Positions 18,099-29,828 of a stretch of DNA of 54,490 nt are shown one piece after another (positions within the stretch are counted from its first letter, which is position 1; the number at the start of each line of letters is the position of its first letter). Position numbers and translations under genes: made by a program. The notes under the pieces are model-generated. The model made no database searches and had not been told where the DNA came from. It was given only the letters and a program-made list of their open reading frames with translations. Source of the DNA: an uncultured Bacilli bacterium (GTDB lineage: Bacteria; Bacillota_I; Bacilli_A; RF39; UBA660); the NCBI GenBank assembly GCA_944358435.1, contig CALVRD010000002.1, positions 1 to 54,490 of the forward strand, written 5' to 3'.

Positions 18099-18127
18099 TT
18101 GATATATTTATAAAATATGAGTATAAT
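18099..18127 (+). promoter_or_regulatory. SigmaA-type promoter of the LCP gene
   Basis: The sequence is TTGATA-17 nt-TATAAT. It lies inside the ORF-track N-terminal extension, which supports the downstream ATG at 18162 as the real start. Confidence 0.6.
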
Positions 18128-18161
18128 TATAAGTATGATTTTGCGAATTGGAGGTTTTTTT

Positions 18162-20216
18162 ATGGCTAAAGAAAATGATGCAAAAAAGATAAATGTTTTA
18201 AAATTAATAATATTAATAATTACGGTGTTATCACTAGGTAGTAGTGCTTTTTTGATATATCAGTTGTTTAAGCTTTCTTCAATTGAAAACTTAATTAGAT
18301 ATATAGTTATTGGTATTTTAATACTTTTTAATTTGCTTATTATAATAAAGGGATTGTGTATATTTAAAAAGAAAGTTAAAAATAGACATTCTAAACATAT
18401 TGGTTTTATTGTATTTATGGTAATATATTCTATTATTTGTGGTGCAGTTGGATCAGTAATTTCTTACTTATATGGCCAATTGGAAAATATGAATACTGGT
18501 TATGTAACTTATTCATCTAGTTTAGTTACTATGAATACAAGTGGTGCTAAAAAAATTGGGGATGTTAAGAATTTTAAGATTGCAATTTTAAATGATGAAA
18601 AGTCTCCTGATGGATATATAATTCCACAGGATATTATTAAAGAATATAAGTTAAATGATAATAATGAGATTATTAATTATGATGATTATTCTAGTATGTT
18701 AACAGATTTATATGTTAATGAAATTAATGCTATGATTTTACCTACAAGTTATCCTGATATGTTTTCTAGTATTGCTGGATATGAAAATATTGCTAATGAT
18801 ACTCATATTATTGTTACTAAAGAAAAAGAAATGAAAAAAGCTGATGTTTCAAACTTTGAAACTAGTTCTAGTGGTAAGGATGTTACGGAACCATTTACAA
18901 TACTTTTAATGGGAATTGATTCGACAGCTGAAGTATTACAAAAGAATGCAGTTGCAAATGGTGATACTTTAATACTTATGACATTTAATCCTAAAACTTT
19001 AAATGCAACAATGCTTTCTATACCACGTGATAGCTATGTACCTATTGCTTGTTGGTCTAATAAGGCAGAAAACAAGATAACTCATGCAGCTGGATATGGT
19101 ACTGATTGTATGATGAACACAATTGAACAATATTTTGATGTTAATATTGATTATTATGCTAAGATTAATTTTAAAGGATTAGTAAAATTAGTTAACGCTG
19201 TTGGTGGCGTTGAGATTAATGTTGATAGAAGATTATGTACTGATAATTCTGATCGTGGTGGTGAAGTATGTATTGAACCAGGATATCAGACTTTAGATGG
19301 TGAGCAAGCATTAGTTTATGCTAGAAATAGACATGATTTGCCAAATGGGGATTTTGGAAGAAATCAACATCAACAAGAAATAGTTATGGCTATTGCGAAT
19401 AAGTTTAAAAATATTACTGATGTTTCTAAGTTTATGGAAATTATTAATACTATTTCTAATAGTTTAGATACAAATCTTACTACTAAGCAGATGTTATCAT
19501 TTTATAATGTTGGTAAAGATATTATTAAGAAAAGTTTATCTTCTGAAGAAGCAGATTTAATTAATATTCAACAATTATATTTAGAAGGTAATGGACAAAT
19601 GATTTATGATGAACGTATGCGTATGGTTCTTTATAATTATGTTCCTAATAAAAATAGTCGTAATGATATTGTTACAGCTATGAAACAAAATTTAGGTTTA
19701 ATCAATTATGAAATAGTTAAAAGCTTCTCTTTCTCTATTAATGATCCGTATGAAAGGCCGGTTATTGGTAAAGGACCTTATAGTTCAGCTAGTTTATATA
19801 AATTACTTCCTGATTTTACTGGTGATGATATGGCTACTGCTAGAGCTACGGCAAACAGACTTGGAATTTCAGTAGTATTTGAAGGGAATTCAGGATATGT
19901 AGTTGCTCAAAACTTTCCGGCAAATAAGCGAATTGATTTAATGAATGGAACTTTAAAACTTACTCTTTCTGGTAAGAAAGATGATAATAAAGATGACAAC
20001 AAAGATGATGGTAAGGACGATGATAAAAACGACAGTACCGATGGCGACAAAGACGATAGTAACAATAATAACGATAATAATGGTAATAATGAAGATAATT
20101 CAAATACAGGTGATAATGGCAATAGTGATAATGATAACTCTGGTACCGGTGATAATGGTGATACAAAACCTCCTACTGATAGCGGAGATAATAACACTGA
20201 TAAACCTAACGAATAG
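18162..20216 (+). CDS. LytR-CpsA-Psr (LCP) family glycopolymer-to-peptidoglycan ligase with a C-terminal PASTA-like domain and an Asp/Asn/Gly-rich tail
   Basis: The start ATG at 18162 has a GGAGG RBS 8 nt upstream. The product has three N-terminal TM helices. LCP core motifs are FTILLMGIDS, LSIPRDSYVPI, INFKGLVKLVNAVGGVEINV, ALVYARNRH and GDFGRNQHQQ. The PASTA-like segment is LPDFTGDDMATARATANRLGISVVFEGNSGYVVAQNFPANKRIDLMNGTLKLTLSG. Confidence 0.85.
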   Translation: MAKENDAKKINVLKLIILIITVLSLGSSAFLIYQLFKLSSIENLIRYIVIGILILFNLLIIIKGLCIFKKKVKNRHSKHIGFIVFMVIYSIICGAVGSVISYLYGQLENMNTGYVTYSSSLVTMNTSGAKKIGDVKNFKIAILNDEKSPDGYIIPQDIIKEYKLNDNNEIINYDDYSSMLTDLYVNEINAMILPTSYPDMFSSIAGYENIANDTHIIVTKEKEMKKADVSNFETSSSGKDVTEPFTILLMGIDSTAEVLQKNAVANGDTLILMTFNPKTLNATMLSIPRDSYVPIACWSNKAENKITHAAGYGTDCMMNTIEQYFDVNIDYYAKINFKGLVKLVNAVGGVEINVDRRLCTDNSDRGGEVCIEPGYQTLDGEQALVYARNRHDLPNGDFGRNQHQQEIVMAIANKFKNITDVSKFMEIINTISNSLDTNLTTKQMLSFYNVGKDIIKKSLSSEEADLINIQQLYLEGNGQMIYDERMRMVLYNYVPNKNSRNDIVTAMKQNLGLINYEIVKSFSFSINDPYERPVIGKGPYSSASLYKLLPDFTGDDMATARATANRLGISVVFEGNSGYVVAQNFPANKRIDLMNGTLKLTLSGKKDDNKDDNKDDGKDDDKNDSTDGDKDDSNNNNDNNGNNEDNSNTGDNGNSDNDNSGTGDNGDTKPPTDSGDNNTDKPNE
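19974..20213 (+). repeat. Low-complexity GAT/AAT/GGT-rich coding tract (the D/N/G/K-rich tail of the LCP protein)
   Basis: It encodes KDDNKDDNKDDGKDDDKNDSTDGDKDDSNNNNDNNGNNEDNSNTGDNGNSDNDNSGTGDNGD. The tract is open in several frames, which explains three spurious overlapping ORFs on the track. Confidence 0.8.
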
Positions 20217-21249: not shown

Positions 21250-21347
21250 ATAATATACCTCCTTCATATTAACTTAAGACTCGCTCTTAAGGTACAAGTA
21301 AACTTGTTTTTACCTTTTCAATGCGGTTTGAGCATGAGGCGTCAAAC
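21250..21347 (-). promoter_or_regulatory. Structured 5' leader of the rplU operon (candidate L21 ribosomal-protein leader)
   Basis: The ~98-nt leader lies between the predicted TSS and the start codon. It contains several hairpins on the minus strand: GTTTGA..TCAAAC, CAAGT..ACTTG nested in GGTA..TACC, and CTTAAGA..TCTTAAG. Position and length fit the Firmicute L21 leader, but no covariance-model search was possible. Confidence 0.5.
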
Positions 21348-21464: not shown

Positions 21465-23327
21465 TTAAATTTTTTTACTTGGATTTAAGCAAGACTTTAA
21501 TTTTACATATTCTTGATCAGTTAAAGTACTACCAGATACAACACTAGATAATAAGCTTTCTGGTGTTAAAGATGGAGATTTTTCTAAATTACGTTTTACT
21601 TTATTCTTAGAAATTATTACTCCAGCAAAACTATAAGTACGTTTTGTATTGATGTAGTTTTCTAATGATTCAGTTGATTCTCTTGATGTTTCATTACTCT
21701 CTTCTATTACTTGTTCTTGATAGTCAACAGCATTATATAAGTAGTCATAAATTTCATCATTAGGAACATAGAACTTATCAGTTGTTAGAACAGCTAACAG
21801 TTCATCTTTTGTATCAATTGGAATATTTAGAGTTTTTACAAGTCTTAGTCTAGCAAAACGATCTTTATAATTTAATAAATTTAAGTCTTCTTCTAAGTAG
21901 TCTTCATATCCTAATTCTAATAATGTATCTATTGAATGAGATAAATCTTCTTGGGCTAAGAAAGAATGATTTAGGTCTGTTTTTAAAGATGAGATTAACT
22001 CATAGTCTAATAAAACTTGATAATTTTCTTGTAGTAGAACTGGTTCGGTTAAAAGAATACTACCGGTATTAAATGCTTTAGGATTGGCCTTTTGCTCAAC
22101 TAAGAAATCAAGATTATTCATAAGAGAGGCATACTCAGTTGAATATTTATCAAATAATGACTCATTATTAATAACTAAATCATTAGTTATAATTTCTTTA
22201 GAAATAAGTGATGTTAATCTAGCAATTGTTTCACTATCACTGGTTGATACTGCTTTTAGCAAAATACTTGGTGTAGTCAATCCAACGGAAGTTAAATCTT
22301 CAAATATTTTAGAGGCATCTACTAGTGATTTAGTCATTGCCATTTCTACGTTATGATCGTTTGATAAAATACCATATTTAGCTAAAAGTACTTGATAATG
22401 AGATTTGTTATTAGCAGAAAGTTCATTATATTCAGCTGCCATCTTAGAATAAATTTTTTTATTATGTTGATAGATTAATCTTAAAGCTTCTAATCTTACT
22501 TTAGGACTTGGAATTTTACTAAGTAACTCTTCGGCATTTCTTATTTCACCACCACTTAAGGCTTTGATAAGGTCTTGTTTTAGCCTATCATACATAATAT
22601 TGGCTTTAGCTAGTTTTTTTTTATTTTTTTGGTCAGTAATTATAGCATTCTCGCCTCTTTTAATGGCACAATTAATTATATCCATTAAAGTTTCAAAATT
22701 TATCTTTCCTTTCAAATCTTCTTTGACTAATTTTTTTATATTAGAATATGACATATTCTTATTAGCTTCTGAATAATTATTAAATGATGATAAAACAATT
22801 TGAAGGGCCATTTTTGTATGAATTGCTGTTGTAACTCCATCTAGACAAGCATGTAGTATTTTTAAAAATAGAGCAGTTTCTTCTTTTGACATATTCATTT
22901 TTTTTATTAAATTATCAATTTCTTTTAATCTTTCACTTTGAGCTTTTGATTTTTTATCTAAAAAAATTAATGGGAAAAATAAAAAACCATTAAGATAAGA
23001 AGATGCTTCTAAATATTTATCTTGGTCAACAACAATATCTTTTAATTTATCAAGATATAGATAAATTTTGCTTATTGATTTATCATTCATAAAAGTCAAA
23101 ATAGATGCCAAAATTGTTTCCATTTGATCATGACTCAGATTCGGGTAATAATCAAATATTATCGCAGTCATTAAATTTAAATCGTCTAATTTGGCAGCTT
23201 GTATAATGTCAGTTGGAGTACCATCTTTTAAGAGATTCTTATAAAAATCAATTCGTACATCTTCAGTATCTAATTCATCAATATTTTTTTGCTTTTCTTC
23301 GGCAATAGCATCTAAAAATCTAAACAT
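21465..23327 (-). CDS. Hypothetical 620-aa all-helical protein of unknown function
   Basis: This is a long uninterrupted ORF. Its ATG overlaps the stop of the upstream gene by 8 nt, which implies translational coupling. It has no TM segments and no catalytic motif I recognise. The C-terminal ~300 aa shows a Leu-rich ~30-35-aa periodicity. Confidence 0.7.
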   Translation of the reverse strand: MFRFLDAIAEEKQKNIDELDTEDVRIDFYKNLLKDGTPTDIIQAAKLDDLNLMTAIIFDYYPNLSHDQMETILASILTFMNDKSISKIYLYLDKLKDIVVDQDKYLEASSYLNGFLFFPLIFLDKKSKAQSERLKEIDNLIKKMNMSKEETALFLKILHACLDGVTTAIHTKMALQIVLSSFNNYSEANKNMSYSNIKKLVKEDLKGKINFETLMDIINCAIKRGENAIITDQKNKKKLAKANIMYDRLKQDLIKALSGGEIRNAEELLSKIPSPKVRLEALRLIYQHNKKIYSKMAAEYNELSANNKSHYQVLLAKYGILSNDHNVEMAMTKSLVDASKIFEDLTSVGLTTPSILLKAVSTSDSETIARLTSLISKEIITNDLVINNESLFDKYSTEYASLMNNLDFLVEQKANPKAFNTGSILLTEPVLLQENYQVLLDYELISSLKTDLNHSFLAQEDLSHSIDTLLELGYEDYLEEDLNLLNYKDRFARLRLVKTLNIPIDTKDELLAVLTTDKFYVPNDEIYDYLYNAVDYQEQVIEESNETSRESTESLENYINTKRTYSFAGVIISKNKVKRNLEKSPSLTPESLLSSVVSGSTLTDQEYVKLKSCLNPSKKI

Positions 23328-24312
23328 TTTCGTTCGCCACCTTTTCTTTTACTAATGGTGAATCTTTAGTAGTATTTCTAGAAAGAATTGAAAATAGTTC
23401 TTGTTCATATTGTTCATTTAAAGCTAAAAACTCGGCATTTAATAAATTATTTTTTAAAGTTCCTTTAATAGCTAAAAAATCCCGATACTTTTTTTCTAAT
23501 GTAGTTCTATAACCTAAATTATTGTTATCTTTCTTAGTAAAGGCTGTTATAGCTGCATAATAATTATCTTGTAATCTGACAAAAGCTACACGAACTTTGA
23601 AGGCCTTTACTTGACTTAAACCAGTTAGTTCACTGTTACCACTAAAACGTTTATATTTTTTAAAAGTTCCGTTTTTTATAGATTGGAATAAACTTAAAAA
23701 TCTATTGTAGTAAGCTGGATCAATATGTTCAATTTCTTCTAATACCTGAATATTTCCACTAGTAGTTGGAACAAATATTATTTTGTTTTCTATTGCTTCT
23801 TCTTTAGGTTGCTCTTCTTCTTTTTCATTAGAATTAAAACCTTTATCAATTAAAGCTAATCTTTTTTGTTCTAATAATAAATCGTCTTTAAATTCAATAG
23901 CTTCTTCGATAGTCATACCTTCATCGGCTACAACATCTCTTATCTCTTTAATATTTTTCATTACTTCAGCTTTAAGTCTATATAAAATTCTTTGATATTG
24001 ATAATCATCAGTTTCTGGTAAAATCTCTGTATCATCACTTTCAAGTTCTTCAATAGTGGCTTTTAATAATTGCTGGTAGTAGAAAGCTACTTCGTCTTCA
24101 AAGGCTTTATCAATATTTTGATTATCAATATTATTTTGTTTTTTCTTTCCTATTTTAGTTTCTTGCTCTTGACTTTGACCAATAGTTGATGTAGTTTTTC
24201 TTAATTTATCTATTTCACTAGCCATAAGTCTTGCAGTTTTTATATTATCAGAAATAGCGGCCATAAGTTCTTCTTCGGTTACATCATCTAAGTCTAATAC
24301 TGTAAAATCCAT
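23320..24312 (-). CDS. Hypothetical 330-aa protein: acidic/coiled N-terminal half and a C-terminal region with a RelE/HigB(Gp49)-like sequence pattern
   Basis: The start ATG at 24310-24312 (MDFTVLDLDD) has a GAGGGGG RBS. The longer ORF-track start would overlap the promoter. The C-terminal segment FKKYKRFSGNSELTGLSQVKAFKVRVAFVRLQDNYYAAITAFTKKDNN resembles the strand pattern of RelE/ParE-superfamily toxins. That resemblance is pattern recognition only. Confidence 0.65.
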   Translation of the reverse strand: MDFTVLDLDDVTEEELMAAISDNIKTARLMASEIDKLRKTTSTIGQSQEQETKIGKKKQNNIDNQNIDKAFEDEVAFYYQQLLKATIEELESDDTEILPETDDYQYQRILYRLKAEVMKNIKEIRDVVADEGMTIEEAIEFKDDLLLEQKRLALIDKGFNSNEKEEEQPKEEAIENKIIFVPTTSGNIQVLEEIEHIDPAYYNRFLSLFQSIKNGTFKKYKRFSGNSELTGLSQVKAFKVRVAFVRLQDNYYAAITAFTKKDNNNLGYRTTLEKKYRDFLAIKGTLKNNLLNAEFLALNEQYEQELFSILSRNTTKDSPLVKEKVANENV

Positions 24313-24340
24313 TGTAATCCCCCTCTTCAATTTCTTGTGT

Positions 24341-24369
24341 ATTATACCATAAAACATGATAATTTGCAA
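24341..24369 (-). promoter_or_regulatory. Strong sigmaA-type promoter of the 330-aa/620-aa operon
   Basis: The minus strand reads TTGCAA-17 nt-TGgTATAAT (perfect -10 with an extended TG), about 28 nt upstream of the start codon. Confidence 0.7.
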
Positions 24370-24413
24370 CAGTTTATTCGGTTGTTAGAAGTCTCTAAAA
24401 AAACAATTTCGTT

Positions 24414-24457
24414 AAAGAAAAAAATCAGTAATAACCTTTATAAATGATTATTACTGA
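24414..24457 (-). terminator. Intrinsic terminator closing the sigma-factor transcription unit
   Basis: A perfect 10-bp stem TCAGTAATAA / TTATTACTGA with a 13-nt loop is followed on the minus strand by TTTTTTTCTTT. It begins immediately after the last stop codon of the pseudogene. Confidence 0.8.
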
Positions 24458-25161
24458 CTATTTATTTTGCTTTGATGCTAATATTTTTTGATAAATTTTA
24501 GGAGTCTCTTTATAATAACTTGAAGTTAAACGAGATTTAGGTAAATATCTGCATGGTATCTTTGTTTTTAATCTTCGATTTAATTCATCAAGTGTTTCTG
24601 TTACGGCATCGGGATTATCCATGTAGATAGCTAAATATCTAGTTTCTTTATTTTTTTATTAATTTAGTTAAAGCTTTTTGTTGAATTTGATGACATCTTT
24701 CTTGAAAAATATCAAATATCTTTGCTGCATCTATAAGCAATACTGGTTCTTTATCATAAGTATCTAGGTCATATCTTAGTTTTAAAACTTCTAATTTTCT
24801 TGGAGTTAATTTGGTTGAGACAATTAATTTATCAACATTAATTACTAATGATGGTTTTTCTTCAAAGTTACTCATTTTTGAAAATAAGTAACGTTCAAAA
24901 TAATTATTTATTGATTTTTTAGGATCAATACTATTATTTTCATTTAATTCTAATTTTATTTAGGATTCTAGTTGTTCAATCATTTTTCTTCAATAAAATT
25001 TGTTAGCTTATATTGTGGATCTTCTTGAATCATATTAAGCATCTTCAAAACAATTTCTAGCTATTTTTAAATAGTCTTTTGATGATAGATTTATATATCC
25101 TATCAAAGAATAAAATTCTTCAAAAACAGGTATCACTTTATAGCTTGTTTTTTTTATTCAT
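24458..25161 (-). pseudogene. Decayed fourth sigma-70 paralog: N-terminal extension fused to region 4, with regions 2-3 deleted and multiple stops and frameshifts
   Basis: The RBS and ATG at 25159-25161 are retained. After MNKKNKL*, an A8 run shifts the frame. The next frame reads ..EEFYSLIGYINLSSKDYLKIARNCFEDA*YDSRRSTI*ANKFY*RKMIEQLES*IKLELNENNSIDPKKSINNYFERY.., with four in-frame stops. This is homologous to the N-terminus of the 594-aa sigma (FYNRYAFTGLSREEFNNFASNCLHDAKY...INNYLERI). A region-4 HTH follows (LTPRKLEVLKLRYDL...FQERCHQIQQKALTKLIKK*). After an A7-run frameshift the sequence continues ETRYLAIYMDNPDAVTETL, as in the intact copies. Confidence 0.8.
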
Positions 25162-25180
25162 AATATATTTCCCCTATTTT

Positions 25181-26638
25181 CTATTTTTTTGCTCTTACTT
25201 TTCTTTCTGTTTGACTTTTATTATTATTCTTTTCATTAATTTTTCTATCTAGTTCTTGTTCTTGGTGACGTAGTCTTGTTACTTGTTCTTGAAGTTCTAA
25301 TGTTTCTTGTAGTTTTTTACTACGTAGTTTTTTCTTTTCTTTTAGTGTTTCAGTTTCTGTTACAACGTTTGGTATATTTAAACGAATTACTTCTGGTTTT
25401 AACCTATCTATTATTTCTTTATGGAAGCGATTATGCATTTTTGGCGAAAGTGGGCCTTTTTCAGTACTTCTATAATTAATTAGCCAACACTCTTCTGGAC
25501 TTAATAATGGAGCAAGTAATCTTTCATAGTGTTCTTTTGAAATATTTAGAATTTCATATATATGTTTTCGTCTTTCTGGTAGCTTATCGGGTTCTATACC
25601 AGTTATTTTAGGATCATTTTGTTCATTTTCAGCAATTACAATTTCTTTAGGGATGCCATTTTTTTGAAATTCTTCATATACTTCTTCAGCAATGATATGC
25701 GAATAATCTCGATTACGATAAGGAGTTTTAGATAATTGTATTGAGGTTGCTCTTGCAATATCTGGTCGATCCATATAAATAGCTAATTCTCTTGTTTTAG
25801 GATGACTTACTAGTTTCCCTAATACTCTTTCAATTATCTTTTTGACCCCAGTATGTGTAATTCCTATTATGTTTCCAACTTCTTTTATACTTTTCATTGA
25901 TTGGTCAGGTTGGCCTATACCATATCTTAATTTAATAACGTTTATTTCTCTTTCCGATAACCCCGCTTCTTCAAGTAATTTTATAATTTCTGGGGTTGTG
26001 GCTTGATTAAAAAGTTTTTCAGATAAATCTTGATCATCAAGAGAAAATGTATCAATGAATCTATCTTCAGAATCAGTATTTATTATATCATTATAACTAA
26101 TAGTCGATGGCGTAGTTAGAAACTGTTCTAATTTAGATGTAGACATTCCTAATTTTTTAGCTAGTTCTTCAGTTGTATGTTCTTGATTATTATGCTCATT
26201 GCAGTCATTTATTACTTTTTCAATTTTTTGTAGTTTGAATTGTAATTCAATTGGAAGATGAATATTTCTACTTTTAAAAATTATGGCTCTTGAAATTGCA
26301 TTCGTAACCCAGCGAATTGCATAGGTTGATAGAGATATTTTACTATTACAATCATAATTATTAATGGCAAAGATTAATCCAAACACTCCTTCTTGAAACA
26401 TATCATCAAAGTCAAGTCCCCTATTTTGATAATTTTTAGCAATTCTTACTATTGTATGAAGGTTACTAATAATTAACTTATTTCTAGCATCATAATCTCC
26501 ATTTTGAGCTTTTATAACTAATTCATTTGTTTGTTTTTGATTAAGGACTGGGTACTCTTTTGTAGTTTCTAGATAAATTTGGATGCTTTCATCAGAAATG
26601 TTATCAAACGTCTTTTTTCTAAGATTAGTTTGAGTCAT
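25181..26638 (-). CDS. RpoD-like sigma-70 factor paralog (485 aa) with a ~195-aa extension after region 4
   Basis: Region 1.2 is IQIYLETTKEYPVLNQKQ. Region 2 is ISNLHTIVRIAKNYQNRGLDFDDMFQEGVFGLIFAINNYD...STYAIRWVTNAISRAIIFKSRNIHLP. Region 4 is LSEREINVIKLRYGIG...EVGNIIGITHTGVKKIIERVLGKLVSHPKTRELAIYM. The extension ends in LQETLELQEQVTRLRHQEQELDRKINEK. Confidence 0.9.
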   Translation of the reverse strand: MTQTNLRKKTFDNISDESIQIYLETTKEYPVLNQKQTNELVIKAQNGDYDARNKLIISNLHTIVRIAKNYQNRGLDFDDMFQEGVFGLIFAINNYDCNSKISLSTYAIRWVTNAISRAIIFKSRNIHLPIELQFKLQKIEKVINDCNEHNNQEHTTEELAKKLGMSTSKLEQFLTTPSTISYNDIINTDSEDRFIDTFSLDDQDLSEKLFNQATTPEIIKLLEEAGLSEREINVIKLRYGIGQPDQSMKSIKEVGNIIGITHTGVKKIIERVLGKLVSHPKTRELAIYMDRPDIARATSIQLSKTPYRNRDYSHIIAEEVYEEFQKNGIPKEIVIAENEQNDPKITGIEPDKLPERRKHIYEILNISKEHYERLLAPLLSPEECWLINYRSTEKGPLSPKMHNRFHKEIIDRLKPEVIRLNIPNVVTETETLKEKKKLRSKKLQETLELQEQVTRLRHQEQELDRKINEKNNNKSQTERKVRAKK

Positions 26639-26669
26639 TGTTTCACCTTCTCATTATTTTAGTTAAATG

Positions 26670-27869
26670 TTAATTTTTCATTTTAGTTAGAGGCTTATTT
26701 TCTGAAATGCAAGAGGTTCTTTTTTGGGCAATTGCTTCATCTAGTTCTTGTTCTCTTCTATGAAGTAATGTTCTTTGTTCTTGAAGACTTAATGTTTCAT
26801 CTAATTTTTGAGCTTTAGCAGCTTGTTTTTCTTGAAGTTCTTTTGAAATACCATTTTTTCTAATTTCTTCGTAGGTTTTTTCGGCTTTTGAATGATAATA
26901 ATGACTTACATATTTTTCAGTACTTATTATTTGTTCAGCAGTTGCTTTACCTACATCTGGACGTGCTAAATATATGGCAAGAGCTTTTGTCTTAGGATTA
27001 GTAATAAGTTTTCCTAAGGCTCTTTCCATAATTCTACTTGCTCCTGCTTTAGTAATTCCAAATTGTTTCCCTATTTCATCAAAACTATATGTTCTACCTT
27101 CTAGACTATCTATGCCAAATCTTAATTTTAAAACTTTAATTTCTGTTTCTGATAGATTTGTATCGTCAAAAAGTTTTTCAATTTCTTCTTTTGATATTTT
27201 CCCAAATAAAGCATCAGATAAATCTGAATCATCAGCAGTAAGATAATCGCCTATTTCTTCTTCAGATTCTTCACTTAATTTTTCATTATAACTTATAGTA
27301 TAAGGAGCTACTAATAGTTTTTCTAATTTATCTAGTGGCATTTTCAAACTTTGAGCTAGTTGTTTTGTTGTTGGTTCCGTATGATGATCATAAATATATT
27401 TTCTTCTAGCTTGCTCTACTTTATATATTTTAATTTGCTTTCTAATAGAAAGATGTATATTTTTACTTTTAAAAATTACGGCTCTTGCAATTTTATTCAT
27501 AATCCATTTTCCCGCATATGTTGATAGTTTTGCTTCTTCATTAATGTCATATTTTTGAATGGCAATTATCAAGCCAATTATTCCTTCCTGAATAAGGTCT
27601 TCTAGATCAAGTCCTTTATTTTTATAAAAATTTGCAATTTTAATTACTAAACGAATATTACTAAAAATTAGTAAGTCATTTGCTTCTTGATCGCCGTTTT
27701 GAGCTCTAATAACAAGGTCTTTTACTGTTTGTTGGTCAAGAACTGGATAGTTTTGAGTTTCTCTTATATATATTTTAGCTAGTCTATTAGGATTAGATGT
27801 TTTAAGTTCTTCAGTTAGTTCTTCAATTAATAAGTCTTCTTCTGGCTCTATCTGATTTAGTTCACTCAT
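26670..27869 (-). CDS. RpoD-like sigma-70 factor paralog (399 aa) with a ~97-aa extension after region 4
   Basis: Region 1.2 is AKIYIRETQNYPVLDQQ. Region 2 is FSNIRLVIKIANFYKNKGLDLEDLIQEGIIGLIIAIQKYD...STYAGKWIMNKIARAVIFKSKNIHLS. Region 4 is LSETEIKVLKLRFGID...IGKQFGITKAGASRIMERALGKLITNPKTKALAIYL. The tail is LDETLSLQEQRTLLHRREQELDEAIAQK. Confidence 0.9.
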   Translation of the reverse strand: MSELNQIEPEEDLLIEELTEELKTSNPNRLAKIYIRETQNYPVLDQQTVKDLVIRAQNGDQEANDLLIFSNIRLVIKIANFYKNKGLDLEDLIQEGIIGLIIAIQKYDINEEAKLSTYAGKWIMNKIARAVIFKSKNIHLSIRKQIKIYKVEQARRKYIYDHHTEPTTKQLAQSLKMPLDKLEKLLVAPYTISYNEKLSEESEEEIGDYLTADDSDLSDALFGKISKEEIEKLFDDTNLSETEIKVLKLRFGIDSLEGRTYSFDEIGKQFGITKAGASRIMERALGKLITNPKTKALAIYLARPDVGKATAEQIISTEKYVSHYYHSKAEKTYEEIRKNGISKELQEKQAAKAQKLDETLSLQEQRTLLHRREQELDEAIAQKRTSCISENKPLTKMKN

Positions 27870-27883
27870 TATTTTTTCTCCCC

Positions 27884-28051
27884 TTAATTTTTTTGATTTT
27901 TTAAAAGTTCTTCTAGTTCTAATTTTTGAAGAATTAATTCTTTCTTTTTAATTGACAATTCAAGGGCTTCTATTTCATCTTTTAGTTCTTTATTTACTAG
28001 ATCAATTGCTTTTATTTCACGATTTATTTTTTCTAATAGCTCTTGTTCCAT
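27884..28051 (-). CDS. 55-codon coiled-coil ORF overlapping the 3' end of the 594-aa sigma gene; probably the detached C-terminal tail of that sigma
   Basis: It is not on the ORF track because it is under 60 aa. My translation is MEQELLEKINREIKAIDLVNKELKDEIEALELSIKKKELILQKLELEELLKNQKN*. The same frame is open from 28102 and reads NVHYQKKLRKARLKF before the ATG, which aligns with KKLRSKKLQETLELQEQ in the 485-aa paralog. There is no convincing RBS of its own. Confidence 0.4.
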   Translation of the reverse strand: MEQELLEKINREIKAIDLVNKELKDEIEALELSIKKKELILQKLELEELLKNQKN

Positions 28052-29801
28052 AAACTTTAACCTTGCCTTTCTTAGTTTCTTTTGGTAATGTACGTTTTTG
28101 TTCTATTACTTCCTCAGTAATACTAGAACATAGCTCATTAATTGAATTATAATATTCTGCTAGTTCTTCATCACTTAAACTTTCTAATTCTTCAGCTGTA
28201 TAATTTTTTACTGGTTGATGGTCAGCAATCTCAGGAAATACTATAGGTCCATTTACTCTTATATCTTCATAGACATCATATGAATCTTGGAGAACATAAG
28301 TTGACTTTTTGGAATTTTCCTTTCTGAGTGCTTGAATTGTCTCTAAAGCAACCGTTGGACGTTGCATATAAATAGCAAAGGCTTCAGTGTCTGGACATTT
28401 AATTATCCTTGTAAATCCTGCTAAAATTATTTGACGAGCCCTTTCATCAGAAATACCCATAATTTGAGCAATATCTTTAAGTGCCATAATTTCTCCTGTT
28501 TCAAAGCCATATCTTAATCTTATGGCAAATTCTTGTCTTGGCGAAACATTGGCTTTTTTAAATAAATCAGATATTTCATTTGGAAGATTCTTTCTACTTA
28601 AGACATCTACTATATCATCAACATCTTCTGGAGTTAAATCTTCAATATCTTCATCATCTTCAAAAAAATCATTTTCTAAAGCAGGAGAATTAGAACTTAT
28701 TGTATGTGGATAACTATTTAGTTTTAGTATTTCTTCATCTGAGACTCCAAGTATGGCTGCAAATTCTTTTATAGTTGGCTCATGTCCATACTCTTTAATA
28801 TATCTTCTTTTAGTTTCTTCAAATTTATAAAATTTTGAATGAATATCAGCAGGAAGACGAATTGTTCTAGAATTGTCACGCAAAGTTTTTGTGATAAAAC
28901 TTTTTACCCACCAGACAACATAAGTTGAAAAGTTATTTGTACTATTTATGTCATATTTATCAATGGCACGCATTAAGCCAATTAATCCTTCTTGAAGTAA
29001 ATCATCTTGATCGTAACCTATTGCATAGTATTTTTGAACCATATGGGAAACTAAACTGATGTTACTTTCTATTAATAAATTACGGGCTTCTTCATTACCT
29101 TGTCTAGCTTGAGTAATAAGTTCTTTTATCTTTGCCTGACTTAGTTTTTTACTATGAAGCATTGTAGATTTGCAACCTTTAAAAACATTAGAGTTTTCTT
29201 TGCTACCTAATTCTCTAACTGTTTTTTTAGTAAAAAAACTTTTATCATCATAATCATTTACTTCTATTTCAGAAATGTCGAGCCCCTTTTTCTTACAGTA
29301 GGCTTGAATGAATATAGTGGTTATTGGAGCATATAAAAAGATATCACCATTAGTAAGTTCTTTAATATCATGTGTAAAAATAGCATCTAATGCTGAACTT
29401 AGTCTTTGATTACGTTCAATTAAAGTAGTAGCCATTTCTAAGGAAAGATTATACCCAAGAGACTCTAAGAAGTCATCGGCTTTAGAAAGCCGTTTTATAA
29501 ATTCATACCATTTTGCATTTATAGGAATAATTCTTTCTAAATAGTTATTTATAAGCTCTTCTTCTCTTTTTTCTAATTGTTTTTTAGTATAAGCATTCAT
29601 TCTTTCAGTTAAAATATCCGCATATAATTCTAAAATTGTTTTTGGAGAAGTATTTTCAGCATACTTAGCATCATGTAGACAATTAGATGCAAAGTTATTA
29701 AATTCTTCTCTAGAAAGGCCGGTAAAAGCATAACGATTATAGAAACTTTTTGTTATTAGTGATAGTTGAAATTTAATGCTTTTATTATGCTCTGATGTCA
29801 T
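28017..29801 (-). CDS. RpoD-like sigma-70 factor paralog (594 aa) with a ~230-aa N-terminal extension and a C-terminal extension
   Basis: The start ATG at 29799-29801 (MTSEHNK) has a GAGGGGG RBS. The ORF-track start would overlap the promoter. Region 2 is ESNISLVSHMVQKYYAIGYDQDDLLQEGLIGLMRAIDKYD...STYVVWWVKSFITKTLRDNSRTIRLP. Region 4 is VSPRQEFAIRLRYGF...IAQIMGISDERARQIILAGFTRIIKCPDTEAFAIYM. Confidence 0.9.
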   Translation of the reverse strand: MTSEHNKSIKFQLSLITKSFYNRYAFTGLSREEFNNFASNCLHDAKYAENTSPKTILELYADILTERMNAYTKKQLEKREEELINNYLERIIPINAKWYEFIKRLSKADDFLESLGYNLSLEMATTLIERNQRLSSALDAIFTHDIKELTNGDIFLYAPITTIFIQAYCKKKGLDISEIEVNDYDDKSFFTKKTVRELGSKENSNVFKGCKSTMLHSKKLSQAKIKELITQARQGNEEARNLLIESNISLVSHMVQKYYAIGYDQDDLLQEGLIGLMRAIDKYDINSTNNFSTYVVWWVKSFITKTLRDNSRTIRLPADIHSKFYKFEETKRRYIKEYGHEPTIKEFAAILGVSDEEILKLNSYPHTISSNSPALENDFFEDDEDIEDLTPEDVDDIVDVLSRKNLPNEISDLFKKANVSPRQEFAIRLRYGFETGEIMALKDIAQIMGISDERARQIILAGFTRIIKCPDTEAFAIYMQRPTVALETIQALRKENSKKSTYVLQDSYDVYEDIRVNGPIVFPEIADHQPVKNYTAEELESLSDEELAEYYNSINELCSSITEEVIEQKRTLPKETKKGKVKVYGTRAIRKNKS

Positions 29802-29828
29802 AAATCTTTCCCCCTCTAATCGGCACAT

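Follow-up and report, generated by a model that had tools for sequence, protein, structure and literature searches.

Few bacterial growth regulators and phage-defence effectors have been studied as thoroughly as the RelE/HigB toxins. To our knowledge, their partners are almost always small DNA-binding antitoxins. In gp49 modules the toxin gene comes first, and the gp49 toxins are ribosome-dependent mRNases (PMC11980606). Here we analysed a 54,490-nt stretch of DNA (contig CALVRD010000002.1, hereafter the window) from an uncultured Bacilli bacterium, in which two overlapping genes, A and B, encode a 330-aa protein with a predicted RelE-fold RNase domain and a 620-aa helical protein from an unannotated family. 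This coupling recurs beside a ribosomal-protein operon across a clade of uncultured genome-reduced gut Bacilli. By our estimate there is about an even chance that A-B is a non-canonical, chromosomally fixed toxin-antitoxin-like module of the HigB type. Coordinates refer to the whole window throughout, and A, B and their signals all lie on the minus strand.

Domains and fold of protein A

Protein A divides into two domains of opposite charge. The N-terminal domain (aa 1-172; 23797..24312) is an acidic helical module (pI 4.4, charge -21) with modelled helices at residues 13-51, 69-84, 106-130 and 135-163; an earlier note on this DNA, made from the letters alone, had called this half acidic and coiled. 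The C-terminal domain (aa 173-330; 23320..23796 including the stop codon) is basic (pI 9.4, charge +6) and is predicted to be a Gp49/HigB-type RelE-fold with a core at aa 175-262, followed by two long helices. The AlphaFold2 model was built on 20 homologues and had a mean pLDDT of 79, with about 90 for the C-terminal domain. In the model this domain runs from a strand (177-180) through two helices (189-195, 199-214) and three strands (233-237, 240-248, 251-259) to the terminal helices (265-314). Neither A nor B had a transmembrane segment or a signal-like N-terminus.

Structural comparison of the model of A with the PDB using Foldseek returned HigB and RelE toxins as its best matches. S. pneumoniae HigB (6af4/6af3) ranked highest, with E-values of 1.6e-4 to 4e-3 and a TM-score normalised on the target of up to 0.71. 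M. tuberculosis RelE1/RelE2, M. jannaschii RelE, PfiT, V. cholerae HigB2, the CARF-RelE protein Cami1 and ParE2 also matched. The entries matched were 6af4/6af3, 9g12, 3g5o, 3bpq, 5jaa, 8phb and 7r5a, with a probability of 1.0 for the top 11 matches. The predicted fold and these matches together place the C-terminal domain in the RelE/ParE (BECR-fold) superfamily.

Sequence similarity was fainter. When the C-terminal domains of 16 family members were isolated, eight matched the Pfam family Gp49 (PF05973), the best at E 6.4e-4. The matches fell in the expected place and were colinear with profile positions 1-82 of 90, and full-length members scored 13-16 bits. Protein A of the window itself gave no match to Pfam Gp49 at E <= 1. 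The full A and B proteins had no match in Pfam, PHROGs, NCBIfam or PADLOC, so the earlier statement that neither could be placed in a known family held, and sequence-profile searches of the PDB with the A queries A1, A2 and A3 found chance matches only. The model and the sub-threshold Gp49 matches bear out the suggestion of the earlier note that A ends in a fold of the RelE/HigB(Gp49) type; this domain takes up its last ~150 aa. Mean pairwise identity within the A family was 53% for the RelE core, 35-41% for the remainder and 17% for the linker.

Active-site residues

The RNase activity and toxicity of S. pneumoniae HigB depend on residues R68, R73, F90 and K92 (PMC7984235). We assigned their equivalents in A transitively through gp49 of phage N15, the namesake of the family; the equivalence comes from alignment and not from structural superposition. 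N15 gp49 aligns with 6af3 over ELR...R-I-L-F...H-F-M-K and with the profile of the A domain over E-V-[KR]...R-V-x-F...A-F-x-K-K, the latter with an hhalign probability that was low but an alignment that was colinear. HigB R68, R73, F90 and K92 then correspond to [KR]236, R241, F258 and K260 of A, with identical spacing (5, 17, 2). R241, F258 and K260 were invariant in 20/20 aligned sequences, and position 236 was always K or R. The domain thus looks catalytically competent, and from these residues we infer RNase activity for A.

Operon structure and signals

Gene A is the 330-aa open reading frame (ORF) at 24312..23320 and gene B the 620-aa ORF at 23327..21465. A program-made ORF list extends A to a TTG at 24369 (349 aa), a triplet that is part of a -35 hexamer. 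We placed the start of A at the ATG at 24312 because a GAGGGGG precedes it and all homologues begin at the equivalent Met. This Shine-Dalgarno sequence (24319..24325) lies 6 nt before the ATG, and ribosome-binding sites of the AAGGGGG type are conserved in relatives. The stop of A and the start of B overlap by 8 nt (ATGTTTAG, 23320..23327), as the earlier note had reported, which we read as translational coupling. The same two codons overlap or abut at about 59 junctions across relatives. An internal Shine-Dalgarno sequence for B, AAGGTGG (23337..23343), sits inside the 3' end of A, with a GGTG or GGAGG equivalent before the B start in relatives.

Upstream of A is a sigma-70-type promoter-like site, TTGCAA-17-TATAAT with a TG-extended -10 (24341..24369; 10/12 consensus matches plus the TG). 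Alone it proves nothing, because our scan found 33 such sites where 29 were expected from shuffled sequence. However, the layout of TTGnnA-17-TGnTATAAT, a leader of ~20 nt and AAGGGGG-ATG was present upstream of 32/54 A copies in relatives. An intrinsic-terminator-like hairpin, a 14-bp A+T-rich stem followed by a U7 run, precedes the site at 24417..24459 (minimum free energy -14.9 kcal/mol, z = -5.0, 0/200 shuffles as good). The consensus terminator scan missed it since its stem has too few G-C pairs. Judging from its position and folding, this hairpin ends the upstream sigma-remnant unit and sets the upstream boundary of the operon. Promoter and hairpin both bear out the earlier proposal of a separate promoter just after the terminator of the sigma unit. 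We propose that A and B are one transcription unit, whose two cytoplasmic products would be made in a fixed ratio via translational coupling. A search for RNA-seq runs covering the locus returned only DNA or untyped runs and one wetland metatranscriptome holding 5% of the words.

Folding against shuffles found no terminator between B and the next promoter-like site, and transcription could therefore run on from the A-B operon into rplU. That next site belongs to the rplU-prp-rpmA operon, which has its own promoter-like TTGACA-18-TACAAT (with TG) at 21383-21354 (minus strand) and an L21 leader (Rfam RF00559) upstream of rplU at 21267-21338 (minus strand; 35.5 bits, gathering score 36). In the closest relatives (L005-L008 and L040), an inverted repeat follows the -10 box, within the short leader ~40 to 10 nt before the start of A (e.g., ATATGTGCCACATAT in L008 and L040). 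This repeat is absent from the window and could be a putative operator for autoregulation in those genomes.

Distribution, synteny and paralogues

Our genome sample comprised 26 loci with B, from one-genome-per-species metagenome-assembled genomes (MAGs) of uncultured gut Bacilli. The carrier MAGs are labelled Mycoplasma, Tenericutes or Erysipelotrichaceae and include 'Candidatus Faecimonas intestinavium'. A stood directly before B in 26/26 of these loci, and B followed A in every locus with downstream sequence, metagenome loci included. Even the most divergent A in our searches (P0225, E 1.9e-27) has an overlapping B downstream. Wherever the flanks were present, the gene order was addB-addA-(0-4 kb)-A-B-rplU-prp-rpmA. 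The addA-A gap holds genes for an LMW phosphatase, pyrH, an oxidoreductase and a DinG-like helicase, and in L012, L015, L019, L020 and L024 A starts 40-80 bp after addA. We rejected a defence-island or mobile-element context, as these gap genes are housekeeping.

To these genomes we added an unbiased metagenome sample of contigs drawn via L21. Among its informative loci with L21 of at least 86% identity, 20/21 had A-B directly upstream of rplU, and all more distant lineages in the sample lacked the pair. It was also missing from relatives that keep addBA...rplU (L069, L075, L076 and L077). In these sister lineages, then, the pair is dispensable. A and B have diverged faster than their neighbors: identity to the window proteins was 32-47% for A and 25-45% for B, compared with 57-79% for AddA, 62-73% for Prp and 79-94% for L21. 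A tblastn search of phage and plasmid records with the C-terminal domain of A found no match, and no relative turned up when IMG/VR was scanned with motifs of both families.

The pair has also multiplied in place. Two to four tandem A-B pairs occurred in L006, L010, L013, L014, L017, L018, L023 and L113, with the tandem paralogues only 34-43% identical in A and 24-40% in B, and the rplU-proximal copy was the ortholog across genomes. Several loci contained an 'A' that consists of the N-domain without the RelE domain and is followed by a full B (L014, 8730-9308; L018, 1325-2104; L023, 8004-8579; L043, 4520-5098; and L044, L046 and L047). Between L014 and L023, dN/dS was 0.41 and 0.27 for the N-domain-only pair, 0.17 and 0.19 for the full pair, and 0.09 for AddA. 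The N-domain-only A and B pairs are therefore apparently under purifying selection.

A few related ORFs were found outside this pattern. P0226 (L110, 6001-7425) is a 474-aa protein of a sporulating Firmicute, with a long helical N-terminus, a gp49-like C-terminal domain, no B, and neighbors carrying SpoIIIAH, GerE and Germane domains. It shares only the gp49-like C-domain with A, so proteins that combine a helical N-terminus with a gp49-like C-terminus exist outside the A-B clade. At the site upstream of rplU in L070 (37-778), the contig end truncates a short gp49-like ORF of at least 126 aa. Where B would stand, an unrelated ORF of 130 aa overlaps it, and together the two might form a small toxin-antitoxin pair of a more canonical kind. 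An extra 211-aa ORF between the second A-B pair and rplU in L113 (7795-8430) matched no family and fitted neither of the two profiles, A or B. Comparison with the B profile also showed that the small ORFs following A-like genes in L070, L110 and L113 are not B-like.

Protein B

Gene B (21465..23327) encodes a 620-aa all-alpha protein from an unannotated family. Its AlphaFold2 model (pLDDT 86) is nearly all helix with one small hairpin at 564-573, so the earlier prediction of an entirely helical protein was close to the mark. The N-terminal 260 aa are hypervariable, with a mean pairwise identity of 14-17%, while the C-terminal 360 aa are conserved at about 31%. Polar residues N289 and S573 are invariant, and N405, D467, E471 and R579 nearly so.

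The family is large. An exhaustive HMM search of 1.84 billion cluster representatives (50% identity clusters) returned 678 representatives at E <= 1e-3 and 313 at E <= 1e-30. The best 150 matches were chiefly full-length proteins of about 600-650 aa, with some shorter fragments, and none of the B-family clusters that we looked up had a name. A Pfam scan of 49 diverse members found no recurrent family, no helix-turn-helix (HTH), no antitoxin domain and no repeat family. Foldseek comparison of the B model with the PDB found nothing significant, the top matches being variants of the TAL effector dHax3 with E-values of 0.2-0.4 and probabilities of about 0.5. Neither the viral structures in BFVD (Foldseek, no significant match) nor a sequence-profile search of the PDB (chance matches only) offered a relative. 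B is thus a large unannotated family without a known structural neighbor.

The earlier note had read Leu-rich repeats of 30-35 aa into the C-terminal half of B and likened it to mTERF or HEAT solenoids. Two hhalign profile self-comparisons detected no internal repeats (off-diagonal probability <= 2%), and mTERF and HEAT proteins were not among the PDB matches of B, which were limited to weak TAL-effector matches (E 0.2-1). With no repeats, no such structural match and no repeat family in Pfam, an mTERF/HEAT solenoid is not supported for B.

Window context

The window is a stretch of ordinary chromosome. It contains pcrA, ligA, gatAB, addBA, three sigma-70 genes, the L21 operon, an LCP protein and PASTA-domain proteins. 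A and B are single-copy in it. The source organism has a G+C content of 27% and occurs in chicken-gut metagenomes, and the G+C content of A and B equals that of the genome. Three tandem sigma-70-family paralogues of 603, 399 and 485 aa lie at 25181-29828 (minus strand), are mutually 32-46% identical and carry long extensions of non-sigma sequence. After them comes a degenerate fourth copy (24400-25180, minus strand) with a 75-aa region-4 fragment at 24648-24875 and faint similarity to the N-terminus of the 603-aa sigma and a short stretch of the 485-aa one (residues 282-304). Strain-level hypervariability was rejected for this region, as same-species strains in X3 and X5 are colinear and about 99% identical over 21.3-31 kb, which spans both the locus and the sigma array. 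On the other side of the operon, an LCP (LytR_cpsA_psr) protein with a PASTA domain and a long Asp/Asn/Lys/Gly-rich low-complexity tail is encoded at 18117-20216 (plus strand).

A sigma gene stood beside the pair in 1/26 genome loci (L011) and in none of about 20 metagenome loci. Because only L011 among the relatives has a sigma gene there, the array is species-specific.

Discussion

The reading that we favor is a HigB-type toxin-antitoxin-like module in which B acts through A. The basic C-terminal domain of A would be a ribosome-dependent RNase of the Gp49/HigB type, and the acidic N-terminal domain is predicted to be an adaptor that pairs with B. Because N-domain-only paralogues precede a full B, it is the N-domain of A and not the RNase domain that goes with B, and we therefore propose that B binds the N-domain. 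Bound in this way, B would keep the RNase domain inactive, and the acidic N-domain could possibly also act as an in-cis inhibitor. Release of the RNase would follow a trigger, for instance stress or phage, that the hypervariable N-terminal half of B probably reads, and the freed domain would cleave mRNA in the ribosomal A site, leading to translation arrest. A basic RNase domain (+6) facing acidic candidate neutralizers fits this scheme. We favor a toxin-like or defence-like role on account of the toxin-first gene order, the coupling, the fast evolution, the diverged tandem paralogues, the toxin-less variants and the absence from sister lineages. The earlier note had raised this role for a pair inserted between the sigma array and the rplU operon; the comparative data favor the toxin-like part, but a recent insertion was rejected, since G+C is genome-typical and the position is the same across the whole clade. 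A more far-reaching version is that A-B represents an undescribed, vertically inherited conflict or translation-control class, in which a gp49/HigB-type RNase is tethered via the acidic adaptor to B and the hypervariable half of B serves as sensor. We offer that version tentatively, as a possibility that we think less apt to hold than to fail.

Several observations weigh against a toxin-antitoxin-like module. Every Gp49 match fell short of the PF05973 gathering cut-off of 23.9 bits. In size B exceeds known gp49 antitoxins sixfold, no HTH or antitoxin domain could be detected in it, and the PADLOC-DB 2.0 defence models matched neither protein. We found no relatives on phages, plasmids or viral contigs, and the neighbors are housekeeping genes, not a defence island. 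The patchy mobile distribution expected of type II toxin-antitoxin systems was also not what we saw, as the pair occupies a fixed syntenic site, though sister lineages lack it. Its inheritance has been vertical, at this one chromosomal site, across a deep clade in which AddA identity falls to 57%. Such vertical retention is unusual for toxin-antitoxin modules.

Much of the same evidence would suit a housekeeping, ribosome-linked factor. On this view the RelE-fold would dock in the ribosomal A site and serve in mRNA surveillance, ribosome rescue or translational control, with B as a partner that binds RNA or the ribosome, and the site beside rplU-prp-rpmA-obg would reflect shared function. The constant place of the pair, immediately before the L21 operon in nearly every carrier, the long vertical inheritance with genome-typical G+C, the neighbors (pyrH among them, with obg downstream) and purifying selection on all parts of the pair are consistent with such a role. 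The size of B, the lack of an antitoxin or HTH signature and of a PADLOC match, the housekeeping neighborhood and the long vertical retention keep it alive. However, the pair is missing from sister lineages with the same synteny, and A and B diverge far faster than all of their neighbors, with dN/dS 2-5x that of AddA. The deeply diverged tandem pairs, the variants without the RelE domain, and the promoter-like site and L21 leader that rplU has for itself also argue against it, and we consider this role unlikely. We regard as rather improbable the related idea that the RelE-fold is a binding or scaffold module, no longer a nuclease, within a nucleic-acid-binding regulator. In its favor, B is large, helical and acidic with weak TAL-effector-like structural matches, the Gp49 similarity is sub-threshold, and some paralogue pairs persist without a RelE domain. 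The conservation of the four HigB catalysis residues in all 20 members and the rank of the RelE core as the most conserved segment of A instead point to a retained catalytic function.

The combination of a helical N-terminus, a C-terminal RNase domain and a linked downstream gene, together with tandem arrays of diverged pairs, also recalls secreted polymorphic toxins of the LXG-like kind, which carry a BECR-fold RNase tip behind a helical trafficking domain; B would then be the immunity protein. Yet A has no LXG/WXG match, signal peptide or transmembrane segment, its C-terminal toxin domain is constant across the family instead of being swapped, the 620-aa B is far larger than known immunity proteins, and the window has no type VII secretion genes. 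We think a secreted toxin very unlikely. The earlier note had also proposed a regulator or partner module of the adjacent sigma-70 array, since the operon here adjoins three sigma genes and a sigma remnant, and in L011 one sigma gene lies beside the pair. Co-occurrence across genomes went against this proposal: no sigma gene adjoins the pair in 25/26 genome loci or in any metagenome locus that carries it, A directly follows addA in five loci, and in the window the terminator-like hairpin separates the two units. The sigma-partner reading is essentially refuted.

The A-B pair is widespread in gut metagenomes and experimentally tractable, with a mechanism that we infer. If a toxin-antitoxin-like module is the right reading, it would add a new architecture and a neutralizer or sensor family to the RelE/ParE world, imply that toxin-antitoxin-like modules can persist vertically for long periods, and assign a function to hundreds of proteins, now hypothetical, from the gut metagenomes of animals and humans. 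If the conflict or translation-control class were real, the B family (at least 678 clusters) would be a new kind of antitoxin or sensor, able to act without a toxin domain.

Comparison with known systems

Gp49-type HigBA systems (PF05973; S. pneumoniae HigBA, 6AF3/6AF4; N15 gp49-gp48) are the closest described relatives. They share with A the RelE/BECR fold, as its best structural match, and the colinear E-[LV]-[RK]...R-[IV]-x-F...F-x-K-K motif with conserved catalytic residues, and they share with A-B a toxin gene upstream of its partner and translational coupling. Unlike in these systems, the predicted toxin domain of A follows a 172-aa acidic helical domain in the same polypeptide and has two additional helices at its C-terminal end. 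The partner differs as well, being a 620-aa all-alpha B without an HTH in place of an Xre-type antitoxin of ~100 aa, and A-B is chromosomally fixed and vertically inherited instead of mobile, with similarity below the Pfam gathering score. RelBE systems offer the same fold (M. tuberculosis RelE1/2 and M. jannaschii RelE; TM 0.6-0.76 on the target) and, by extension, ribosome-dependent mRNA cleavage as the likely activity of A, but the gene order of A-B is reversed and there is no RelB-like antitoxin.

HigBAC toxin-antitoxin-chaperone (TAC) modules resemble A-B in having a HigB-type toxin whose control draws on a third function beyond plain antitoxin binding, and TAC modules are activated by phage proteins. 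A-B, in contrast, has two genes only and no SecB-like chaperone, and B is unrelated in sequence and fold. TAL-effector, mTERF and HEAT proteins share with B an all-alpha elongated architecture, with dHax3 the top, non-significant match (E 0.22, probability 0.54). Multidomain BECR-fold defence proteins (Cami1 CARF-RelE, PtuZ, gp49-HTH and other fused toxin-antitoxins; PMC11980606) likewise join a RelE-fold effector to a regulatory or sensor domain in one polypeptide, but the N-domain of A is not a CARF, PIN or HTH domain, and A has a separate large partner. The RNase domain of A is thus a divergent member of a known superfamily, while the two-domain toxin, the 620-aa partner family and the fixed, tandemly expanding arrangement fall outside the multidomain RelE/ParE architectures of the 2025 survey (Gerdes 2025, PMC11980606), among which the A-B architecture does not appear.

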